Shown one piece after another: positions 3,050-12,113 of a stretch of DNA of 64,000 bases. This stretch comes from an uncultured Chloracidobacterium sp. (GTDB taxonomy: Bacteria; Acidobacteriota; Blastocatellia; Pyrinomonadales; Pyrinomonadaceae): assembly GCA_964625555.1 (NCBI GenBank), contig CAZVDM010000001.1, forward strand, positions 13,573 to 77,572, given 5' to 3'. The position numbers and the translations under genes are program-made. The notes beneath the pieces are model-generated. The model was not told where the DNA came from and ran no database searches. It was given only the letters and a program-made list of their open reading frames with translations. Numbering within the stretch: the first letter of the stretch is position 1; each line of letters begins with the position of its first letter.

Positions 3050-3135
3050 AGGAACCTCCTTTTGCTTGTTGAGCAAGCATAGATTTACAGATGTCTGGAG
3101 CCGAGACTGTCTTCCAAGTCACACAGCGGTAAATT

Positions 3136-3729
3136 TCACTCCGCGATCTTGCGTTCGATCCGACGATCGGGGATGAGCCATATTGCGGCGACAATTGCGT
3201 ATAGAATGCCGGCGATGGCTTGATGGGCGAATGCCAGAGGTATCGCGGCGACGTAGCAGGCGATCGAGATCTTGCCCTTGAGATCACCGCCGATGGCGTT
3301 TGCCAATAGCTCGTTCTCGTGCGTGTCGTGTTTGACGATAGCCGTTTGCAGGATCGTGTACGCAACCGCACACATTAACAAAACTACGCCATACATTGAC
3401 GTCGGAAACGGTGCAAAGTGATTTTCGCCCATCCACCCCGTGACGAACGGCACGAGCGAGAGCCAAAACAGCAAGTGCATGTTCGCCCACAGCACTTTGC
3501 CGTTGACCTTTCGCGTTGCCTGGAGCATGTGGTGGTGGTTATTCCAGTAGATCCCAAGATAAATAAAGCTCAGTACATAAGCGACGAATATCCAGAACAG
3601 CGGCCTCAGTGCTTCGAGGTCCGTGCCGTGCGGTATCTTCAGCTCGAGGACCATGATCGTCATAATAATGGCGATAACGGCGTCCGAGAATGCTTCGAGT
3701 CGGGTCTTGTTCATAAGAGTTTTTGCCAC
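3136..3729 (-). CDS. TMEM175 family potassium channel (DUF1211)
   Basis: The N-terminal RLEAFSDAVIAIIMTIMVLEL matches the TMEM175 RxxxFSD signature helix. The protein has 6 TM helices in 197 aa. Confidence 0.85.
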   Translation of the reverse strand: MAKTLMNKTRLEAFSDAVIAIIMTIMVLELKIPHGTDLEALRPLFWIFVAYVLSFIYLGIYWNNHHHMLQATRKVNGKVLWANMHLLFWLSLVPFVTGWMGENHFAPFPTSMYGVVLLMCAVAYTILQTAIVKHDTHENELLANAIGGDLKGKISIACYVAAIPLAFAHQAIAGILYAIVAAIWLIPDRRIERKIAE

Positions 3730-3793
3730 GAATTACACGAATTGCACGAACAAGAAGGAAGAAACAATTATTTTTATTCGTGTAATTCGTGGC
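3725..3793. repeat. Hairpin of inverted 9-mer arrays (CACGAATTN units)
   Basis: Left arm GCCACGAATTACACGAAT(TGCACGAA) and right arm ATTCGTGTAATTCGTGGC form a perfect 18-bp inverted repeat. It overlaps the stop codon of the 3793-4194 gene and the start of the TMEM175 gene. Confidence 0.75.
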
Positions 3794-4194
3794 TAACTTG
3801 CCGGCGGCAATTCCATCTTCACCAGTCCGTCGAACGCTACATGATAGGCGACGCCCTTAATAGGGACGGTCATCTCTTCCTCTGTCTTGCCTTCAGAGTT
3901 GGCGATGCCAACGCTGGCAAAATAGCATGACGCGCCGTGTGCGTTAGCATGTTTAACGAGGTGTTCAAAGGTCTCCTGGTTTTCGATACGGCCGCGGCCG
4001 GGGTACATGGCCGTGCGAACAACGAAGAAGCCGATCTCGCCGTTTTTATGTGCAACGATCTGCGGTTCCTGCATACGATCGGCGTAGACATCGGCAGATT
4101 CGATTTCCCATTCGGCCTCGAGCAGCTGTTTATATACGATCTCGACGCCGAAAGCATGCACGTCGGATTCTTTCATCAATTCCGGTTCTGACAT
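3793..4194 (-). CDS. Hypothetical cytoplasmic protein
   Basis: 133-aa ORF with protein-like composition and no family recognised. Repeat hairpins flank it on both sides. Confidence 0.5.
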   Translation of the reverse strand: MSEPELMKESDVHAFGVEIVYKQLLEAEWEIESADVYADRMQEPQIVAHKNGEIGFFVVRTAMYPGRGRIENQETFEHLVKHANAHGASCYFASVGIANSEGKTEEEMTVPIKGVAYHVAFDGLVKMELPPAS

Positions 4195-4234
4195 TGAGAG
4201 TATTTTACTAGCCGCGAGTGGAATTCCAAAGACG

Positions 4235-4330
4235 GCGGAATAGAACGCGGATCAAGCGGATATGGCGGATCAAGGCGGATGTTAATATGAATTTCAGATC
4301 CGCGAAAATCCGCTCGATCCGCTTCATCCG
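4235..4330. repeat. Hairpin of inverted 9-mer arrays (GCGGATNNN units)
   Basis: The left arm is GCGGATCAA GCGGATATG GCGGATCAAG GCGGATGTT. The right arm is AGATCCGC GAAAATCCGC TCGATCCGC TTCATCCG, with about 4 units per arm. Confidence 0.75.
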
Positions 4331-4355
4331 AGTTCCATTCTGCTATATTACCCAA

Positions 4356-5309
4356 ATGGACATCAACGATATTAAAATCGCCGCCGAACGGATACGGCCT
4401 TACGTCAGGCGGACACATTTGGAATACAGCAACAGCCTGAGTAAACGCATCGGCGTGCATACGTCGGTCAAATTCGAGTTGTTCCAGAAGACCGGAGCGT
4501 TCAAGGCCCGCGGGGCGTTTAACAAACTGCTGACAATGTCAGACGCCGAGCGCGCCAAGGGCGTGGTCGCGGTCAGCGGGGGCAATCATGCGCAGGCGGT
4601 GGCGTATTCCTCGAGCGTCCTGGGTGTTGACGCGGTGATACTAATGCCCGCGAATACGCCGCAGGTCTATGTCGATGCTACGCGGGGTTATGGGGCGACG
4701 GTGGAATTGCAAGAGAATATTGGAGCCGCGTTTGAGAGGGTAAAGGATTTTGAGGCCGAGGGCCGAGTCTTTGTGCATCCGTTTGACGACGAAGTGATCA
4801 TCGCGGGGCAGGGAACCGTCGGGTTGGAGATACTCGAAGACGCTCCGGACACAACAGATATCATCCTCAGCATCGGCGGAGGCGGTTTGGCGGGCGGAGT
4901 TGCGGTGGCGGCGAAGTCCATTGATCCAAACATAAGAATGTGGGCAGTGGAAACGGAAGGAGCCGACGCGATGTCGCGTGCCGTTGCGGCTGGAAAGGTA
5001 GTCGAGATGGACGCCATCACATCGATCGCAAAGACGCTCGGAGCACCTTATGTTTCCGATCTCACGCTCGGGATGGTGCAGAAATACTACGAATCGGTCA
5101 CGGTCGTCACCGATGCCGAAGCTGTCGAAGCGATAGTCTTTATCGCCGAACGCCTCAAGGTCATAACCGAACCCGCCGCCGCCGTGACACTGGTCGCTGC
5201 CGAAAAGCTTCGTGCCAATTTCAACGAAGACAGTCGCGTCGTTCTCATCCTCTGCGGCGGAAACACCGGCGTCAGCGACCTGTGCAGCTATCTTCCGCTG
5301 CTGGGTTAA
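4356..5309 (+). CDS. Threonine/serine dehydratase (PLP-dependent, short catabolic-type form)
   Basis: Contains the PLP-lysine motif TGAFKARGA and the Gly loop GGGGLAGG. The start is set at MDINDIKIAAERI (4356) because the upstream part of the ORF only reads through the repeat element. Confidence 0.85.
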   Translation: MDINDIKIAAERIRPYVRRTHLEYSNSLSKRIGVHTSVKFELFQKTGAFKARGAFNKLLTMSDAERAKGVVAVSGGNHAQAVAYSSSVLGVDAVILMPANTPQVYVDATRGYGATVELQENIGAAFERVKDFEAEGRVFVHPFDDEVIIAGQGTVGLEILEDAPDTTDIILSIGGGGLAGGVAVAAKSIDPNIRMWAVETEGADAMSRAVAAGKVVEMDAITSIAKTLGAPYVSDLTLGMVQKYYESVTVVTDAEAVEAIVFIAERLKVITEPAAAVTLVAAEKLRANFNEDSRVVLILCGGNTGVSDLCSYLPLLG

Positions 5310-5395
5310 GGTCAGAATGACGTGCGTGAGAGGGTGGCGTGAACTTGCGTGTCGATCGAGGTCCAGGCCGCCCGCTTACGCAGGCGGTTCTGACC
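5310..5395. repeat. REP-doublet (REPIN-like) palindromic element, copy 1
   Basis: GGTCAGAATGACGTGCGTGAGAGGGTGGCG ... CCGCCCGCTTACGCAGGCGGTTCTGACC. The better-preserved right arm (CCGCCCGC-TTAC-GCAGGCGG) is itself a stem-loop. The element starts immediately after the dehydratase stop codon. Confidence 0.7.
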
Positions 5396-5404
5396 AGAAA
5401 CCGC

Positions 5405-5476
5405 AACGTCCTCATCCTCTGCGGCGGCAACACAGGCGTCAGCGATCTTTGCGGGTACTTGCCACTAGTTCAATAG
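5405..5476 (+). pseudogene. Orphan duplicate of the dehydratase 3' end (24 codons including the stop)
   Basis: NVLILCGGNTGVSDLCGYLPLVQ* compares with the gene end RVVLILCGGNTGVSDLCSYLPLLG* (5235-5309). The nucleotide similarity is obvious by eye over about 70 nt. Confidence 0.6.
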
Positions 5477-5535
5477 TGCGGCCGTTAACTGAGCGAAAAA
5501 GCTCATTGAAACCATTGGATCATCACTGTGCCATT

Positions 5536-5618
5536 GAAAACCCCGCGACCTACCTTGAAAACCCTGAGGTCTTGGCGAAAACCCCGCAACCTGCGGTGAA
5601 AACCGCCGGGGCTTGATT
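5536..5618. repeat. Four direct repeats with ~21-bp phasing (GAAAACC cores)
   Basis: GAAAACC begins at 5536, 5557, 5577 and 5598, giving spacings of 21, 20 and 21 nt. Confidence 0.6.
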
Positions 5619-5799
5619 AGGAAAAATTAGCTTTCATAATGATCGTTCCATTTAGCACTCTCTTATGATGGCGATTATAAACTGATGTCCTCTGAACGTC
5701 GACTACTCGCCAACAAAGGTGTCGAGTGCCTCGCGGACCGGCTTTTAGTTAGATGAGATCCGTTGTAATATATCCCGAAATCGATCACACGGTAAGCAT

Positions 5800-6534
5800 A
5801 TGGCAACAAATACTCAATTTGACTGGAGGCGTTCGGATCGCCGTGTATATGCGGCGGTCGCGGTGTTCTTTGTGTTAGTGGTCTTACTGGGATTCGGGCG
5901 GACCTACTATTTTAGGTTTGTGCTGGACGGTCCGGCGGTGCCGTCGATGCTCGTTCATTTGCATGGATTTGTAATGACGTTGTGGGTTGCTTTCTTTGTT
6001 TCGCAGGTATGGCTGATCCGCACAATGCGGGCTAAGGTCCATATGAATATGGGCATTCTCGGCATCGCCTTGGCAACTGTCGTCGTTGTGGTCGGGTTCT
6101 TTACCGGTGCGGCAGCCGCTAAGAATGGTTCGGCCGCGTCGCCTCCGGATATTCCGCCGCTGGCTTTTTTCATTGTGCCGTTCTTCGACATCGTATTGTT
6201 TGCGGCTTTCTTTGCAGCGGCGATCTACTACCGCAAACGGCTCGCGGATCACAAGAGGTTGATGCTGCTAACGGTGATCAACTTTCTGCCTCCCGCGGTG
6301 GCTCGGATCCCAATTCCGGCTCTTCAAGCTTTCGGCCCCTTATTCTTCTTTGGTATCCCAACACTTTTGGCGCTCGGATTTATCATCTACGACACAGTTA
6401 GGAACGGTAAGCTCAATAAGCCGTTTGCGATCGGTGCTGCCATATTGATCGCATCATATCCGCTGCGGTTGATGGCTTCAGAGACGAGTGCGTGGATGAG
6501 TTTCGCCGCGTGGATAACAAGTTGGGCAGCCTGA
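5800..6534 (+). CDS. Polytopic membrane protein of unknown function
   Basis: 244 aa with about 7 predicted TM helices. No family was recognised. Confidence 0.55.
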   Translation: MATNTQFDWRRSDRRVYAAVAVFFVLVVLLGFGRTYYFRFVLDGPAVPSMLVHLHGFVMTLWVAFFVSQVWLIRTMRAKVHMNMGILGIALATVVVVVGFFTGAAAAKNGSAASPPDIPPLAFFIVPFFDIVLFAAFFAAAIYYRKRLADHKRLMLLTVINFLPPAVARIPIPALQAFGPLFFFGIPTLLALGFIIYDTVRNGKLNKPFAIGAAILIASYPLRLMASETSAWMSFAAWITSWAA

Positions 6535-6541
6535 GTCACTT

Positions 6542-9382
6542 CTATTTATTCAAATCGGGCAATATCGCGTCAAAGGCTTCGCGGATGGCGAGACGGTGCG
6601 CCGTGAGATGTTCGAGGAGTTCGGCGGGGGACCCGAGACCCATGCGTTCGGCGATCGTCGCAAGTGCAGTTTGGTTGGCGATCGGAAGCCGCGTCGTCCG
6701 GCCTATCGTGAGACGAAGCTGGTGATCGAGAGCCGAGAGGAATTCATGGCCGGCTCGCAAAGACTTGAGACTAGAGACGGGAGACGGGGGAAGCGAGACG
6801 GGAGACGGGAGACTAGAGACGGGAGACAGACTATCAGTCGCGGTCGAATGATTAGTATATTTGGTTATGAGTTTGTCTAGCATTGCCGCTGTGGAACGCG
6901 GATTCTCCGGTTCCTGTTCACCCTTCTCCCGTCTCTTGTCTCCTGTCTCATTGTCTTCACCAACGTCCGGCACATTATCTCTAAGCTGCAGATATCGCAT
7001 CGCAAAGTAGATATCGAGCATGCCGCCGCTGCCGTATTTGATATCGATGTCGCCGCCACGTTGCGGACGAGCACGCTGCTTTTCTAAGGCTAGCCGGACG
7101 CGGCGGGTCTCTTGTCGGAGTTCGTCCGCGTCGACCGTCAGGGCACGTTCATGGATGATGCGGCGGGTTTCACTCTCGACATTCCTGGCAAGGCTTTCAT
7201 CACCGCCGACGGCACGCAGTTTGACGAATGCGAGCATCTCCCAGATGGCCGCCGTATCTCGCATATAGTCGAGAAAGGCGTCGATGGAGATGGCTGTCAT
7301 TCCCTTCGAGCCAAACGGACGGAGGCGGAGATCGACTCGATACAGATTGCCGTCGCGAGTCATCGATGAGAGTGTCGTGGTAAAGAGTTCTACCGTCCGC
7401 GCGTAGAATTCCGCCGCCGACAAGCCGGCGATCTGGTGCCCCGGATCAAAATAGACGATCACCAGATCAAGGTCCGAGTCGTAATCAAGCCCACGGCCGC
7501 CGAGCTTTCCGAGTGCGAGGATCGCGATATCGAGATTGACTTCGTACGGACGATAGCGGTTGATCAATTCATCGCGGACGACCTCGAGAGCGGCCTCGAT
7601 ACACGCTTCGGCAAGCTCGGTCTGTGCCCGTTTCGCTTCGCTGAGCGTCAATTTGCCAAAGATGTCACGAACGACCAACTCAAGCAGCAGCCGCGACCAT
7701 ACCTTTCGCATAGCCGACAAACGGCGGCCGAAATCTCTCGTACCGTCGATCGCCGCGGTCATTATCATCTCGTAATCGGGCTGTTCAAACTCGTCGTCAG
7801 GGTCAAGTAGATCTACAGCGAGCTGTGGGTTAGCGGCCAGCATCGATGCAAAATGCGGCGAAATGGCGATCACACGTTCGAGGACAGCGGCACTTTTCGT
7901 GGTCGGATCATAGGTGACGGACGATTTCTCGATCGAAGCAAGAATGTGTGAACGGGTTCTCTCGGCCGTGTCCGGTACCTCGGTAATGTCGAGATCGGTC
8001 ACGGCGGCAGGCGTTTCACCGAATATCCGTGTAAAGATACGGCTGACATTTCCGGTAGTTTCGATGAGGTCCGATTCGAATTCACCTGCGGAAGCAAAGG
8101 CCATTTTGCGGGCGAGCAGAGCACGTTTTTCAGGTTCAGCGGGTATCGTGTGGGTCTGAACGCCGTTCTTCATTTGCAGCACATGCTCGGCACGGCGCAG
8201 GAATTCGTAGGCGGCGGAAAGTTCGGACAATTCCGATTCTGAAATGTACTTGCGGTCCGCCAGCCGGGACAAACTGATAAGCGTGTGAGGTGACCGCAGC
8301 CATTTATCTTTGCCGCCATAAGCGAGCTGAAGTGCCTGGGCGAGAAATTCGATCTCGCGGATTCCGCCGCGGCCGAGTTTGACGTCGAAACCGCGTTTGT
8401 TGATGTTCTCGAGATCGATCCGTTCCTTTGAACGGCGAACGTTTGCGAGTGCGGTCTCTATCGTTTCTTTGCGTGAAAAGATCAGATCCTCGACCGCAGA
8501 TATGAATTGCTTGAATAGATCGGTGTCGCCTGCGCAGCCGCGGGAACGGATCAGCACCTGCCGTTCCCAGGCACGAGCCTCGGTCTTGAAATAGCGGATC
8601 ATATCGCCGACCGAGAATGCCAAAGCTCCGAGCGAACCGTGCGGACGAAGCCGTAAGTCGACTCGATATGCTGCACCCTCGCCGGACGGCGAGCCGACGA
8701 GTTTTGTGATATATTCGGCGAGTTTTACAAAATACTCGCGGTTTGTAACGCTCTCGCGCGAACCGCCTGTTGTCTTTCCCTCGGCGGAATAGATGAATAA
8801 TAGGTCGATATCGGAAGAATAGTTGAGTTCCTTAGAGCCGAGCTTGCCGAGTGCAGCAATACAGAATCCCGAGGGAGTAAAGCGGCCTTTGGCATCAGTT
8901 TGCTGCGGCTGGCCGAATCGATTATCGATCTCACGCCGGGCGCGTTCGAGAGCGGACTCAAGGATCGCGTCGGCAAGATTGGAGATCTCTTCGGTGATCT
9001 CGGCTATAGTAGCAAGCCGGCGAATATCGCGGAGGTAGATCCGCAGAAGTTCCCGGCGACGAAAACGTGCAAAGAGAACCTGAGGTTCGAGCTGGGAATT
9101 GGTAAGAGCGAAGCGGGCCAGCGATTCGAGCAGCTCTTCGCGGCCGCGAACGCCTGATTCGAGGCGTTTGCGGCCAAGCCACCAAATGTAGTCGGGATGC
9201 TGAAGCAGCGTGGTCGACAGCAGCGGGCTGAACGAGACCAGAGTCAGCACATCGGACAAAAGGCCTTCTTGTTTGAGCAGCTTCTCGGATTGCGACGGAT
9301 GCTGCTCGGCAAACTGGCCGAGAAATCGCCGGGCTGCATCGGCGTCGGGCAGGTCTCGGATCAATTGTTCTACTTTGCGCAT
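6542..9382 (-). CDS. glnE: Bifunctional glutamine synthetase adenylyltransferase/adenylyl-removing enzyme
   Basis: 946 aa with two nucleotidyltransferase modules (GKLGSKELNYSSDIDL and GKLGGRGLDYDSDLDL) plus GlnE-specific helical domains. Confidence 0.9.
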   Translation of the reverse strand: MRKVEQLIRDLPDADAARRFLGQFAEQHPSQSEKLLKQEGLLSDVLTLVSFSPLLSTTLLQHPDYIWWLGRKRLESGVRGREELLESLARFALTNSQLEPQVLFARFRRRELLRIYLRDIRRLATIAEITEEISNLADAILESALERARREIDNRFGQPQQTDAKGRFTPSGFCIAALGKLGSKELNYSSDIDLLFIYSAEGKTTGGSRESVTNREYFVKLAEYITKLVGSPSGEGAAYRVDLRLRPHGSLGALAFSVGDMIRYFKTEARAWERQVLIRSRGCAGDTDLFKQFISAVEDLIFSRKETIETALANVRRSKERIDLENINKRGFDVKLGRGGIREIEFLAQALQLAYGGKDKWLRSPHTLISLSRLADRKYISESELSELSAAYEFLRRAEHVLQMKNGVQTHTIPAEPEKRALLARKMAFASAGEFESDLIETTGNVSRIFTRIFGETPAAVTDLDITEVPDTAERTRSHILASIEKSSVTYDPTTKSAAVLERVIAISPHFASMLAANPQLAVDLLDPDDEFEQPDYEMIMTAAIDGTRDFGRRLSAMRKVWSRLLLELVVRDIFGKLTLSEAKRAQTELAEACIEAALEVVRDELINRYRPYEVNLDIAILALGKLGGRGLDYDSDLDLVIVYFDPGHQIAGLSAAEFYARTVELFTTTLSSMTRDGNLYRVDLRLRPFGSKGMTAISIDAFLDYMRDTAAIWEMLAFVKLRAVGGDESLARNVESETRRIIHERALTVDADELRQETRRVRLALEKQRARPQRGGDIDIKYGSGGMLDIYFAMRYLQLRDNVPDVGEDNETGDKRREKGEQEPENPRSTAAMLDKLITKYTNHSTATDSLSPVSSLPSPVSLPPSPVSSLKSLRAGHEFLSALDHQLRLTIGRTTRLPIANQTALATIAERMGLGSPAELLEHLTAHRLAIREAFDAILPDLNK
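6767..6956. repeat. Inverted heptamer arrays inside glnE
   Basis: Nine tandem GAGACGG-type heptamers lie at 6767-6829 and five reverse-complement CNGTCTC heptamers at 6922-6956. They are translated as SLSPVSSLPSPVSLPPSPVSSLKS and EDNETGDKRREKGEQEPE. Confidence 0.75.
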
Positions 9383-11089: not shown

Positions 11090-12046
11090 GTGGAAACGCG
11101 TGTACACATCACGGCTGCATCCGAGCACAACAAAATGCGGCTCGAAGACTTCCTGCTCGGGCAATTTCGCTCGTTGAGCAAGATGTATCTTCGCGCGGTT
11201 GTGAAGGCCGAAAGGTGCGAAGTAAACGGACGTTGGGAAAACCGCGGTTACAAACTGCGGCCGAACGATTTCGTTGAGATCATGGTCGATCACACCCGCG
11301 GGACCGCTATGCAGCCGCAGGAGATCGGGCTCGATATCATCTTCGAAGACGACGAACTCATCGTCATCAACAAGCCCGAAGACATGTTGATGCATCCCTC
11401 GCATCGGGACAACAGCGGGACGCTGCTGAATGCCCTCGCGCATTACCTTAATGAAGGTGAGGAGTGGAGGAGTGGAGGAGTAGAGGAGTTAGATCACGAT
11501 CTCCCTCACTCCTCTACTCCTTCACTCCTGTACTCCTCCACTCGCCCAGTCGTCCGCCCGGGCCTTCCGCACAGGCTTGACAGGCTTACGTCGGGGCTTG
11601 TGGTCGTTACTAAGACCGCGCGGGCTCATCGGGTTATTTCGGGGCATTTTTTGAAGAAAAGAGTAGAGAAGCTGTATCTTGCGTTGGTTGACGGAGTGGT
11701 TGAGCAGGATAGCGGGACGATCGACGCGCCTATTGGGCGGTTTGCTGATATCAAACTTTGGGGCGTGAAGGACGACGGGAAGCAGGCTGTGACCAATTAC
11801 AAGGTTCGTGCGCGTTACGACAATACGACACTGCTCGAACTGGAGCCGGTCACGGGCCGTACGAATCAGCTTCGGATCCACACCGCGCATATTGGGCATC
11901 CGATCGTGGGCGATGTGCAGCGTGCGGGGACGGAATACCGGCGTCTATGTTTGCACGCCTATCGTCTTGCGTTCCCGCACCCGACGACGCGGGAGATGGC
12001 GCGGTTTGAGAGGGAAGTTGTGTTCCGGTCAGAACCGCCTGCGTAA
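11090..12046 (+). CDS. RluA-family pseudouridine synthase with N-terminal S4 domain
   Basis: Contains the HRLDRLTSGLVVV catalytic motif and an S4-like N-terminus. GTG start at 11090, with an alternative ATG at 11135. The last 6 codons and the stop lie inside a REPIN-like element. Confidence 0.85.
   Translation: METRVHITAASEHNKMRLEDFLLGQFRSLSKMYLRAVVKAERCEVNGRWENRGYKLRPNDFVEIMVDHTRGTAMQPQEIGLDIIFEDDELIVINKPEDMLMHPSHRDNSGTLLNALAHYLNEGEEWRSGGVEELDHDLPHSSTPSLLYSSTRPVVRPGLPHRLDRLTSGLVVVTKTARAHRVISGHFLKKRVEKLYLALVDGVVEQDSGTIDAPIGRFADIKLWGVKDDGKQAVTNYKVRARYDNTTLLELEPVTGRTNQLRIHTAHIGHPIVGDVQRAGTEYRRLCLHAYRLAFPHPTTREMARFEREVVFRSEPPA
11458..11543. repeat. Hairpin of inverted octamer arrays inside the rluA-family gene
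   Basis: The left arm is TGAGGAGT GGAGGAGT GGAGGAGT AGAGGAGT. An 18-nt loop contains the palindrome AGATCACGATCT. The right arm is ACTCCTCT ACTCCTTC ACTCCTGT ACTCCTCC ACTC. Confidence 0.8.
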
Positions 12047-12113
12047 GCGGGCGGCATGGACGTTGAATTTGCGCGACGGGCGTGCCCCCCGCTTATGCAG
12101 GGGGTTCTGGCAC
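12027..12113. repeat. REP-doublet (REPIN-like) palindromic element, copy 2
   Basis: GGTCAGAACCGCCTGCGTAAGCGGGCGG ... CCCCCCGCTTATGCAGGGGGTTCTGGCAC, with the same arm sequence as copy 1. Each arm is a GC stem with a GTAA or TTAT loop. Confidence 0.75.

Follow-up and report, generated by a model that had tools for sequence, protein, structure and literature searches.

A REPIN lies between two copies of a dehydratase gene end in an uncultured acidobacterium

Introduction

Inverted pairs of repetitive extragenic palindromic (REP) sequences that share one hairpin (REPINs), together with their REP-associated tyrosine transposases (RAYTs), are the closest described counterpart of an element that we examined in a 64,000-nucleotide stretch of DNA (hereafter the window) from an uncultured Chloracidobacterium sp. 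(GenBank assembly GCA_964625555.1, contig CAZVDM010000001.1, positions 13,573 to 77,572). In the window, a palindromic hairpin directly follows a threonine/serine dehydratase gene and is itself followed by a second, diverged copy of the end of that gene. The insertion of REPINs and the origin of ordered arrays of REPs, or bacterial interspersed mosaic elements (BIMEs), are unexplained according to those who described them (PMC3337134). In Pseudomonas fluorescens SBW25, Bertels and Rainey reported tandem REPINs "including the flanking sequences", for which, as they noted, a mechanism had yet to be proposed (PMC3116915, PMC3337134), and Nunvar et al. (2010) found BIMEs into which 3' ends of rayt genes had been taken up (PMC2817692). 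According to Di Nocera et al. (2013), GTAG/CGTC-tagged REP termini supply stop codons (PMC3733652). Transposition by Y1 enzymes of the IS200/IS605 type produces no target duplication (PMC2817692).

The host is a soil acidobacterium whose genome is a 3.88-Mb metagenome-assembled genome (MAG) in 332 contigs. Throughout, T denotes the functional gene tail, T' its downstream relic copy and R the REP or REPIN between them; coordinates of features are collected in Table 1.

Results

The hairpin separates two copies of the dehydratase gene end

A preliminary description made from the letters alone had reported an 86-bp palindrome directly after the dehydratase stop and, beyond it, a diverged second gene end with its own stop, all of which is present in the sequence. 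The dehydratase protein ends in ...RVVLILCGGNTGVSDLCSYLPLLG with the stop codon TAA at 5307-5309. The hairpin (5310-5395) is an imperfect palindrome of 86-89 nt that starts with GGTCAGAA directly 3' of this TAA and ends with TTCTGACC, its right arm reading CCGCCCGC-TTAC-GCAGGCGG. Its single-strand fold has a computed energy of -59.2 kcal/mol (z = -6.1), which 0 of 200 shuffled sequences equalled. The left REP (about 5310-5338) is degenerate and is followed by a locus-specific spacer, and the right REP (5368-5395) is a perfect reverse complement of the 28-mer GGTCAGAACCGCCTGCGTAAGCGGGCGG, extended by the tail at 5396-5398. Beyond it, the last 24 codons of the gene are repeated at 5402-5476, reading RNVLILCGGNTGVSDLCGYLPLVQ up to the second stop. 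The hairpin region had no match in Rfam at E up to 1, no terminator-like site was found in 5150-5850, and an RNAalifold consensus of five orthologous REPIN copies contained 0 compensatory pairs.

The homology of the two gene ends, proposed at the outset, was borne out by formal alignment: the local alignment of T with T' scored 33.5, the maximum among 1000 shuffles being 13, and a repeat finder paired 5235-5299 with 5402-5466 (80% identity over 65 nt, spacing 167 nt). The duplication itself thus stands, but the length of about 70 nt first given for it does not. Homology begins at AAGA-CAG (5227/5231) in the gene and resumes directly after the REP tail ...GACCAGA (5396-5398), so that the duplicated stretch covers about 79-83 nt on the gene side and 78-81 nt on the downstream side, an indel of 1 nt being included. 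At the junction the gene reads GAAGA/CAGTCGC and the downstream side GACCAGA/AAC-CGC (slashes mark the joint), AAGA/CAGA being common to the REP tail and the gene; the AAGA in front of T also corresponds to the final four bases of the consensus REP tail, a microhomology. Since the spacing of 167 nt (3x55+2) places T and T' in different frames, read-through of the stop codon cannot reach T'.

Table 1. Coordinates of features in the window and direct repeats flanking REP doublets elsewhere
Feature	Position	Strand	Remarks
Threonine/serine dehydratase gene (pyridoxal phosphate-dependent, PALP fold), intact	4356..5309	+	Pfam PALP, 236.7 bits
T, functional copy of the duplicated target	5227..5309	+	final 26 codons and stop, AAGA (5227-5230) in front
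REPIN	5310..5398		degenerate left REP, spacer, perfect right REP, tail AGA
T', second gene tail (relic)	5399..5476	+	own stop TAG 5474-5476; 80% identity to T
Membrane-protein gene, 244 aa	5800..6534	+	native downstream neighbour; far boundary of the site
Second REPIN of the same family in the window	12027..12112		perfect left REP 12027-12054, diverged right REP 12085-12112
Direct repeat, G000 C188			score 26; T about 39 nt; ..GDIPVPSAFVR-stop / GDVPVPSAFVR-stop
Direct repeat, L139			score 19; T 24 nt; end of RAYT homologue, ..DDLPEFD-stop / NDLPEFE-stop
Direct repeat, G000	C1:8230-8334		score 14; T 27 nt; first nine codons of DUF1835 gene, functional copy adjoins gene body
Direct repeat, L154			score 11, anchored at both ends; T 18 nt; end of FtsX permease gene, ..ALRYE-stop / PLRYE-stop

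Filled and empty sites in relatives date the insertion

Close relatives were located through the dehydratase protein and their contigs were then compared. Filled sites were found in L211, which comes from another sample and is ~99% identical to the window; in L029 (88% nucleotide identity), where the second copy is more decayed (RVVLVLCGGIRGVSGVCSYLSLF, then stop); and in L208/L210 and L030, where the REPIN adjoins the TAA, with AGATAGCCGCC.. or AGACAGGCACG.. behind it and a 21-22-nt tandem array after that. All five filled alleles (window, L211, L029, L208/L210 and L030) have the locus-specific spacer and the REP-T' junction in common and so stem from a single insertion event older than the split of these lineages. 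Empty sites were found in L036 (94% amino-acid identity), where the stop is followed by 161 nt and the same membrane-protein gene; in L031-35 (91%), where it is followed by 147 nt and glnE; and in L212, where the tail YLPLLS-stop stands without a REPIN. The membrane-protein gene, which follows the dehydratase directly at the empty site L036, is present also in L029, L208, L211 and L212. An ancestor of several lineages thus carried a REPIN exactly behind the dehydratase stop, with the target of about 80 nt on both sides of it (T-REPIN-T'). The early suggestion of an element insertion accompanied by duplication or replacement of the 3' end fits this target-REPIN-target order and the empty sites L036, L031 and L212.

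T' was lost later in some lineages and is mostly gone in L208 and L030. By position-anchored matching, L208 retains 6 of the first 7 bases of T directly after the REP tail and L030 retains 4 of 7; by free local alignment, the T' remnant in L030 was below significance (p = 0.43). The empty-site lineages either lost the REPIN unit, for instance by recombination between T and T', or gained another allele. The gene tree gives these lineages no resolved order. Tails of the functional type (YLPLL[GS]-stop, YLPMLG-stop) occur at the empty sites L212 and L031, the last codons being highly variable in the family, and the dehydratases of the species representatives of the genus (55-76% amino-acid identity) are too distant for polarising the tails.

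Comparison of the window with L029 shows that the two copies have had different fates. By hand count, 7 of 75 nt differ in T (9%) and 20 of 72 nt in T' (28%, distributed 6:4:9 over the codon positions), so that T' evolved about three times faster than T. The third-position divergence of the gene is 0.30 and equals the divergence of T', which indicates that T' evolves neutrally. T' is accordingly a non-functional relic, T being the copy that is under purifying selection. Searches with T' against the whole genome by blastn and tblastn returned T and no other match.

Recombination is frequent at this locus. Between the window and L211, 157 differences were counted over 3100-6900; they are strongly clustered (e.g. 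3220-3351, 4823-4958 and 6330-6401) with long identical stretches between them, which points to pervasive homologous recombination in the population. A 19-nt segment inside T holds four synonymous changes, compared with only 5 changes in the 540 nt that comprise the REPIN, T' and what lies downstream.

The hairpin belongs to a new REP/RAYT-like family

The hairpin in the window is a genuine REPIN, and the acidobacterial REP/RAYT-like family to which it belongs is new. This identity, which the preliminary description had worded as "REPIN-like", follows from multi-copy inverted REP doublets and from cognate REP-flanked Y1 (RAYT-like) genes. The 28-mer and a sister subfamily (..CCACCTGCGGTAGCGGGTGG) together gave 70 matches with up to 5 mismatches in the 3.88-Mb genome, most of them inverted pairs 30-100 nt apart, and the family is mostly extragenic and dominated by doublets. 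Among 61 sampled genomes of the genus, 58 contained the core pattern, in up to 76 copies each; a reversed control pattern had 0 matches across the same 61 genomes. At the dehydratase locus, both hairpin arms are good in the L208 and L030 orthologues of the element, and presence or absence at orthologous sites attests mobility. Of 87 REP tails, 20 adjoin the stop of a long open reading frame (ORF), and 11 of these lie no more than 1-2 nt from it; for random positions the share is 2.5%.

A profile search with Pfam Y1_Tnp detected eight loci in the genome. Two of these genes are bracketed by inverted REPs with tails outward, one for each subfamily: C36:5759-6280 by subfamily-1 REPs and C20:10139-10672 by subfamily-2 REPs. 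Both encode the HxH (HUH-type) motif and score 23.8 (C36) and 30.6 bits (C20) at a cut-off of 23. The suggested search for a RAYT gene was therefore successful as regards REP-flanked Y1 genes but not as regards the NCBIfam RAYT model NF047646, for which the C36 and C20 genes reached only 17 and 29 bits at a cut-off of 80. The two genes are RAYT-like by gene context, distant by sequence and outside the curated equivalog.

Compared with described REPIN-RAYT systems (PMC3116915, PMC2817692), the likenesses are the inverted doublet in one hairpin, tens of copies per genome, vertical sharing across the genus, an own REP-flanked Y1 gene per subfamily, presence and absence that vary between relatives, and extragenic placement, often directly behind stop codons. 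The family differs in its host phylum (Acidobacteriota), in its REP tail, which is (T/A)(T/A)GTCAGAACC and not GTAG, and in its transposases, which score 24-33 bits on Pfam Y1_Tnp and fall under the NCBIfam RAYT cut-off. It also differs in that some copies carry long direct target duplications, which lie outside described REPIN biology.

The footprint recurs at other REP doublets

The recurrence scan compared the two flanks of each REP doublet; mismatched flank pairs served as its null, in which scores reached 13 at most. At four further loci a direct repeat adjoins both REPIN ends (Table 1), and their flanking genes were confirmed as real by Pfam. Three of the repeats are gene ends; the fourth (C1:8230-8334), about 5.3 kb before the start of the window, mirrors the window arrangement at the beginning of a gene, the REPIN lying 3 nt upstream of the DUF1835 ATG and the relic of the first nine codons (GTGATCTACCACGTTTTGCCCGGTGAT) on its far side. 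The C188 gene tail is one of a multi-copy family, for which the genome gave 8 matches. In another species, the array L200 consists of three units of the tail of a short-chain dehydrogenase/reductase (SDR) gene with TAA plus a REP, then a fourth tail with TAG, then unique sequence; this fourth tail (T') is the most diverged. At the junctions, both element ends are normal termini. One of them directly meets the terminal codon (stop or start) of the gene copy in use, whereas the joint of the REP tail lies 18-83 nt inside the gene; native downstream sequence follows T'.

With the window included, the footprint was found at 5 of ~157 doublets and is thus rare but recurrent. A further 42 doublets from REP-rich genomes, many with perfect arms, had no flanking duplication above the null, and no constant short direct repeat was found at the flanks of 141 doublets. 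The elements accordingly lack the short fixed-length target duplication that each copy of a classical miniature inverted-repeat transposable element (MITE) of the DDE type would have, their long duplications being rare and varying between 18 and 83 nt. They also depart at the window locus (79-83 nt) from the absence of target duplication typical of IS200/IS605 elements, a rule with which ~97% of the other doublets comply.

Arrays in the genus, intergenic or ordered, comprise L250 (405 nt x3.0), L199 (79 nt x5.3) and L200 (104 nt x3.6). The first (G047:C2:2042300-2044100) is a plain intergenic array of REPIN/REP plus flanking sequence, and the second (G048:C1:2388900-2390100) is an array of REPIN/REP plus flanks just upstream of a gene that we take, from its N-terminus recognised by eye, to be rlmN-like. 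The array L201 was dropped as an example of the (T-R)n-T order on account of a REP remnant before its first unit.

From these loci it is possible, and we put it forward tentatively, that REPs and REPINs occasionally integrate or pass between lineages with a long, variable (18-83 nt) duplication of a gene terminus, a general and so far undescribed footprint.

Duplication in place is the favoured origin

The REP family is spread through Pyrinomonadaceae genomes by RAYT-like Y1 (HUH) transposases. The explanation that we favour, and regard as somewhat probable when taken as a whole, is that a REPIN inserted behind the dehydratase stop, that the target was duplicated in place and that T was later recoded. 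The in-place duplication on its own is likewise on the probable side, part of its share belonging to the tandem duplication considered below. Two routes could produce it. A long target duplication could arise by long staggered joining as the element is joined in; alternatively, replication could skip the hairpin, copy the tail and, at the AAGA microhomology, return to the REP end. The AAGA common to the REP tail and the gene at the window locus fits this second, hairpin-bypass and template-switch route. In either case, the inner copy T continues the reading frame and the outer copy T' decays silently. The mostly synonymous differences between T and T' would then reflect allelic recombination tracts that repeatedly strike the functional copy, and the tract within T that distinguishes the window from L211 indicates that allelic exchange suffices to recode T after an in-place duplication. 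T-REPIN-T' could further be the starting structure that unequal crossing-over expands into BIME-like tandem REP arrays, a role suggested by the footprint at other REPs together with the (T-REP)x3-T' array.

Several observations weigh against an origin in place. About 97% of the examined doublets, many with perfect arms, have no duplication, which, together with the IS200/IS605 rule, means that duplication is no regular product of insertion. Identical T copies were found in no pair (best 91%). The differences between T and T' lean to synonymous changes (23 synonymous to 6 non-synonymous over independent events), such that 21% are non-synonymous where about 36% would be expected had the target been duplicated in place and left a neutral relic (p ~0.06). 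In 4 of 5 independent events, T and T' end in different stop codons. Each of the five single cases concerns a gene terminus, though only about a quarter of REP tails adjoin genes. The last ~130 nt of the dehydratase gene are nearer to the REPIN-bearing L030 than to the empty L036 (Fisher p = 0.004), and clear microhomology at the REP-T' junction is confined to the locus family of the window. A strong claim of recoding, based on raw codon-position counts (14, 6 and 32 differences at positions 1, 2 and 3, of 91 each), was toned down: the synonymous excess is only marginal in view of the neutral pattern between two relics (6:4:9), in which third positions change about twice as fast.

Microhomology aside, these observations are no less compatible with import from another lineage. 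Under import, the 3' part of the gene of a related lineage, with its REPIN and ending at the outer end of the hairpin, would have recombined homologously inside the gene, and the REPIN end would have been joined illegitimately ~80 nt upstream of the recipient stop (one-sided homology-facilitated illegitimate recombination); T would be the donor tail and T' the recipient's own. We consider this unlikely, though it is the alternative that survives best. It accommodates the synonymous bias, seen also in the differences older than the divergence of the window and L029 lineages (7 of 7 synonymous by hand count), as well as the differing stops and the lack of identical-copy duplication at any of ~156 doublets. 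It would explain why the duplicated stretches are all gene termini, as only these sequences are conserved enough to anchor recombination between lineages, and it agrees with the rampant recombination at the dehydratase locus and with a breakpoint-like switch near gene position ~828, before which the matches to L036 and L030 number 27:5 and after which they number 5:8. However, import requires an illegitimate joint exactly at the REP terminus each time, the synonymous excess is marginal given the faster third positions, and a later allelic replacement of T, of which a tract is directly seen in T, gives the same pattern. Moreover, neither tail is clearly nearer to the empty-site relatives (hand comparison), and intergenic arrays with identical units indicate that duplication in place does happen in the genus.

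It is improbable that the unit [T+REPIN] underwent an ordinary tandem duplication and that the second REPIN was then precisely lost. The genus does have tandem REPIN/REP arrays with flanks (L250, L199 and L200), as has Pseudomonas, and excision of REPINs is documented (PMC3116915). Such a history would nevertheless need two events at each of at least five loci, and the T-REPIN-T-REPIN intermediate was not seen at these loci. No second REPIN follows T' in any of the five REPIN-bearing alleles examined, and no REP follows the T' at the end of the clean array L200, so that T-R-T' looks primary. Plain tandem duplication of a 167-nt unit was rejected, the sequence after T' being unlike the REPIN.

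Integrative elements that target the 3' ends of genes leave a displaced original end. Remains of a larger element of this kind with a replacement 3' end (attL/attR-like), or recombination with a paralogue as raised at the outset, would also leave two copies that differ mostly at silent sites, as these do, and the intact end beside the insert with a displaced, older end beyond is a further likeness. Both are very improbable here. An att site would have an integrase and cargo between the copies, whereas the 86-89 nt between them are all REPIN in every lineage and in all five alleles, the joint is exactly at the REP terminus, and the neighbours are the conserved membrane-protein gene and glnE, with no integrase gene nearby. 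The footprint also recurs at unrelated genes with a REP always in the middle. As for a paralogue, T' matches none in the genome, and the junction is common to the orthologous loci of several lineages, which speaks against that part of the preliminary description. An assembly artefact, such as two strain alleles stitched together in a MAG fragmented into 332 contigs, has a negligible chance, as the same architecture stands in the independent assemblies L211 (~99%) and L029 (88%), and the REPIN and junction in L208/L210 and L030.

Relation to tandem REP arrays and other elements

The nearest parallels to the footprint are tandem REPIN clusters and BIMEs (PMC3116915 Fig. S7; PMC3337134; PMC2817692 Additional file 4), in which flanks are repeated along with the REP or REPIN; L139 is exactly such a case of a rayt 3' end (PMC2817692). 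The described clusters are repeats of full units, whereas here a single element separates two target copies and no further element is present; one copy serves an intact gene, and the other is a dated relic in decay. The IS200/IS605 elements with their "peel and paste" transposition are alike in being HUH/Y1 relatives with subterminal hairpins and asymmetric ends, many copies of the present family reading ..TA(A)G before TCAGAACC at one end and GGTTCTGACAAG(A) at the other; they differ in making no target duplication, in contrast to the variable 18-83 nt found here. A limited literature search returned no paper on the minimal form, one element between two target copies of which one serves the gene.

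The REPIN between target copies, the empty site, the dated relic and the parallel cases, up to a three-unit array, provide concrete junctions. These constrain models of the process, namely long staggered joining, hairpin bypass with template switch, and one-sided recombination of an import, and they suggest a simple origin of arrays by unequal exchange between T and T'. If REPs and REPINs do occasionally integrate or pass between lineages with a duplicated gene terminus, a hairpin element can come to sit flush against a coding end without harm to the gene, leaving a datable relic; direct repeats would be created from which BIME-like tandem arrays grow, and the finding would bear on how RAYTs mediate the insertion of REPINs.

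Additional observations

The second REPIN of the window (Table 1) has no flanking duplicate. The ORF 11090-12046 enters its left REP and stops at the TAA of the REP hairpin loop, the REPIN thus providing about 7 last codons and the stop. In this respect the family resembles the GTAG/CGTC REPs, which adjoin or overlap stops (PMC3733652); duplicated gene tails are not reported in that paper.

The longest ORF call for the dehydratase opens at GTG 4218. Relatives with 90-98% amino-acid identity begin at an identical MDIND... and point to ATG 4356, which is most plausibly the start; the apparently false N-terminal extension (4218-4355) overlies repeat-rich upstream sequence. The membrane-protein gene matched no Pfam family. 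Between T' and this gene, four direct repeats with a GAAAACC core and a spacing of 20-21 nt occupy 5536-5615, and the homologous place in L030 and L208/L210 holds 6-8 copies of a related 21-22-nt unit (GACCGCAGCCAAAAWTAA..); together these repeats are a fast-evolving tandem array.

Other hairpin families were encountered as well. In L039 (the contig encoding P0015), another palindromic repeat at ~830-1063 (GGCCGGAACGCAGCCGCCCTC ... GAGGGCGCCTGCGTTCCGGC) replaces the dehydratase stop and lengthens the ORF by 17 codons, so the same gene end was struck by a second hairpin family. In L069, L080 and L081 (genome G008), a different hairpin family (GCATTGCAGAAGCCCGCACG..TAAGGGC) is interleaved with REPs in arrays. 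Relics such as T' yield spurious small ORFs and "gene remnant" calls in annotation.

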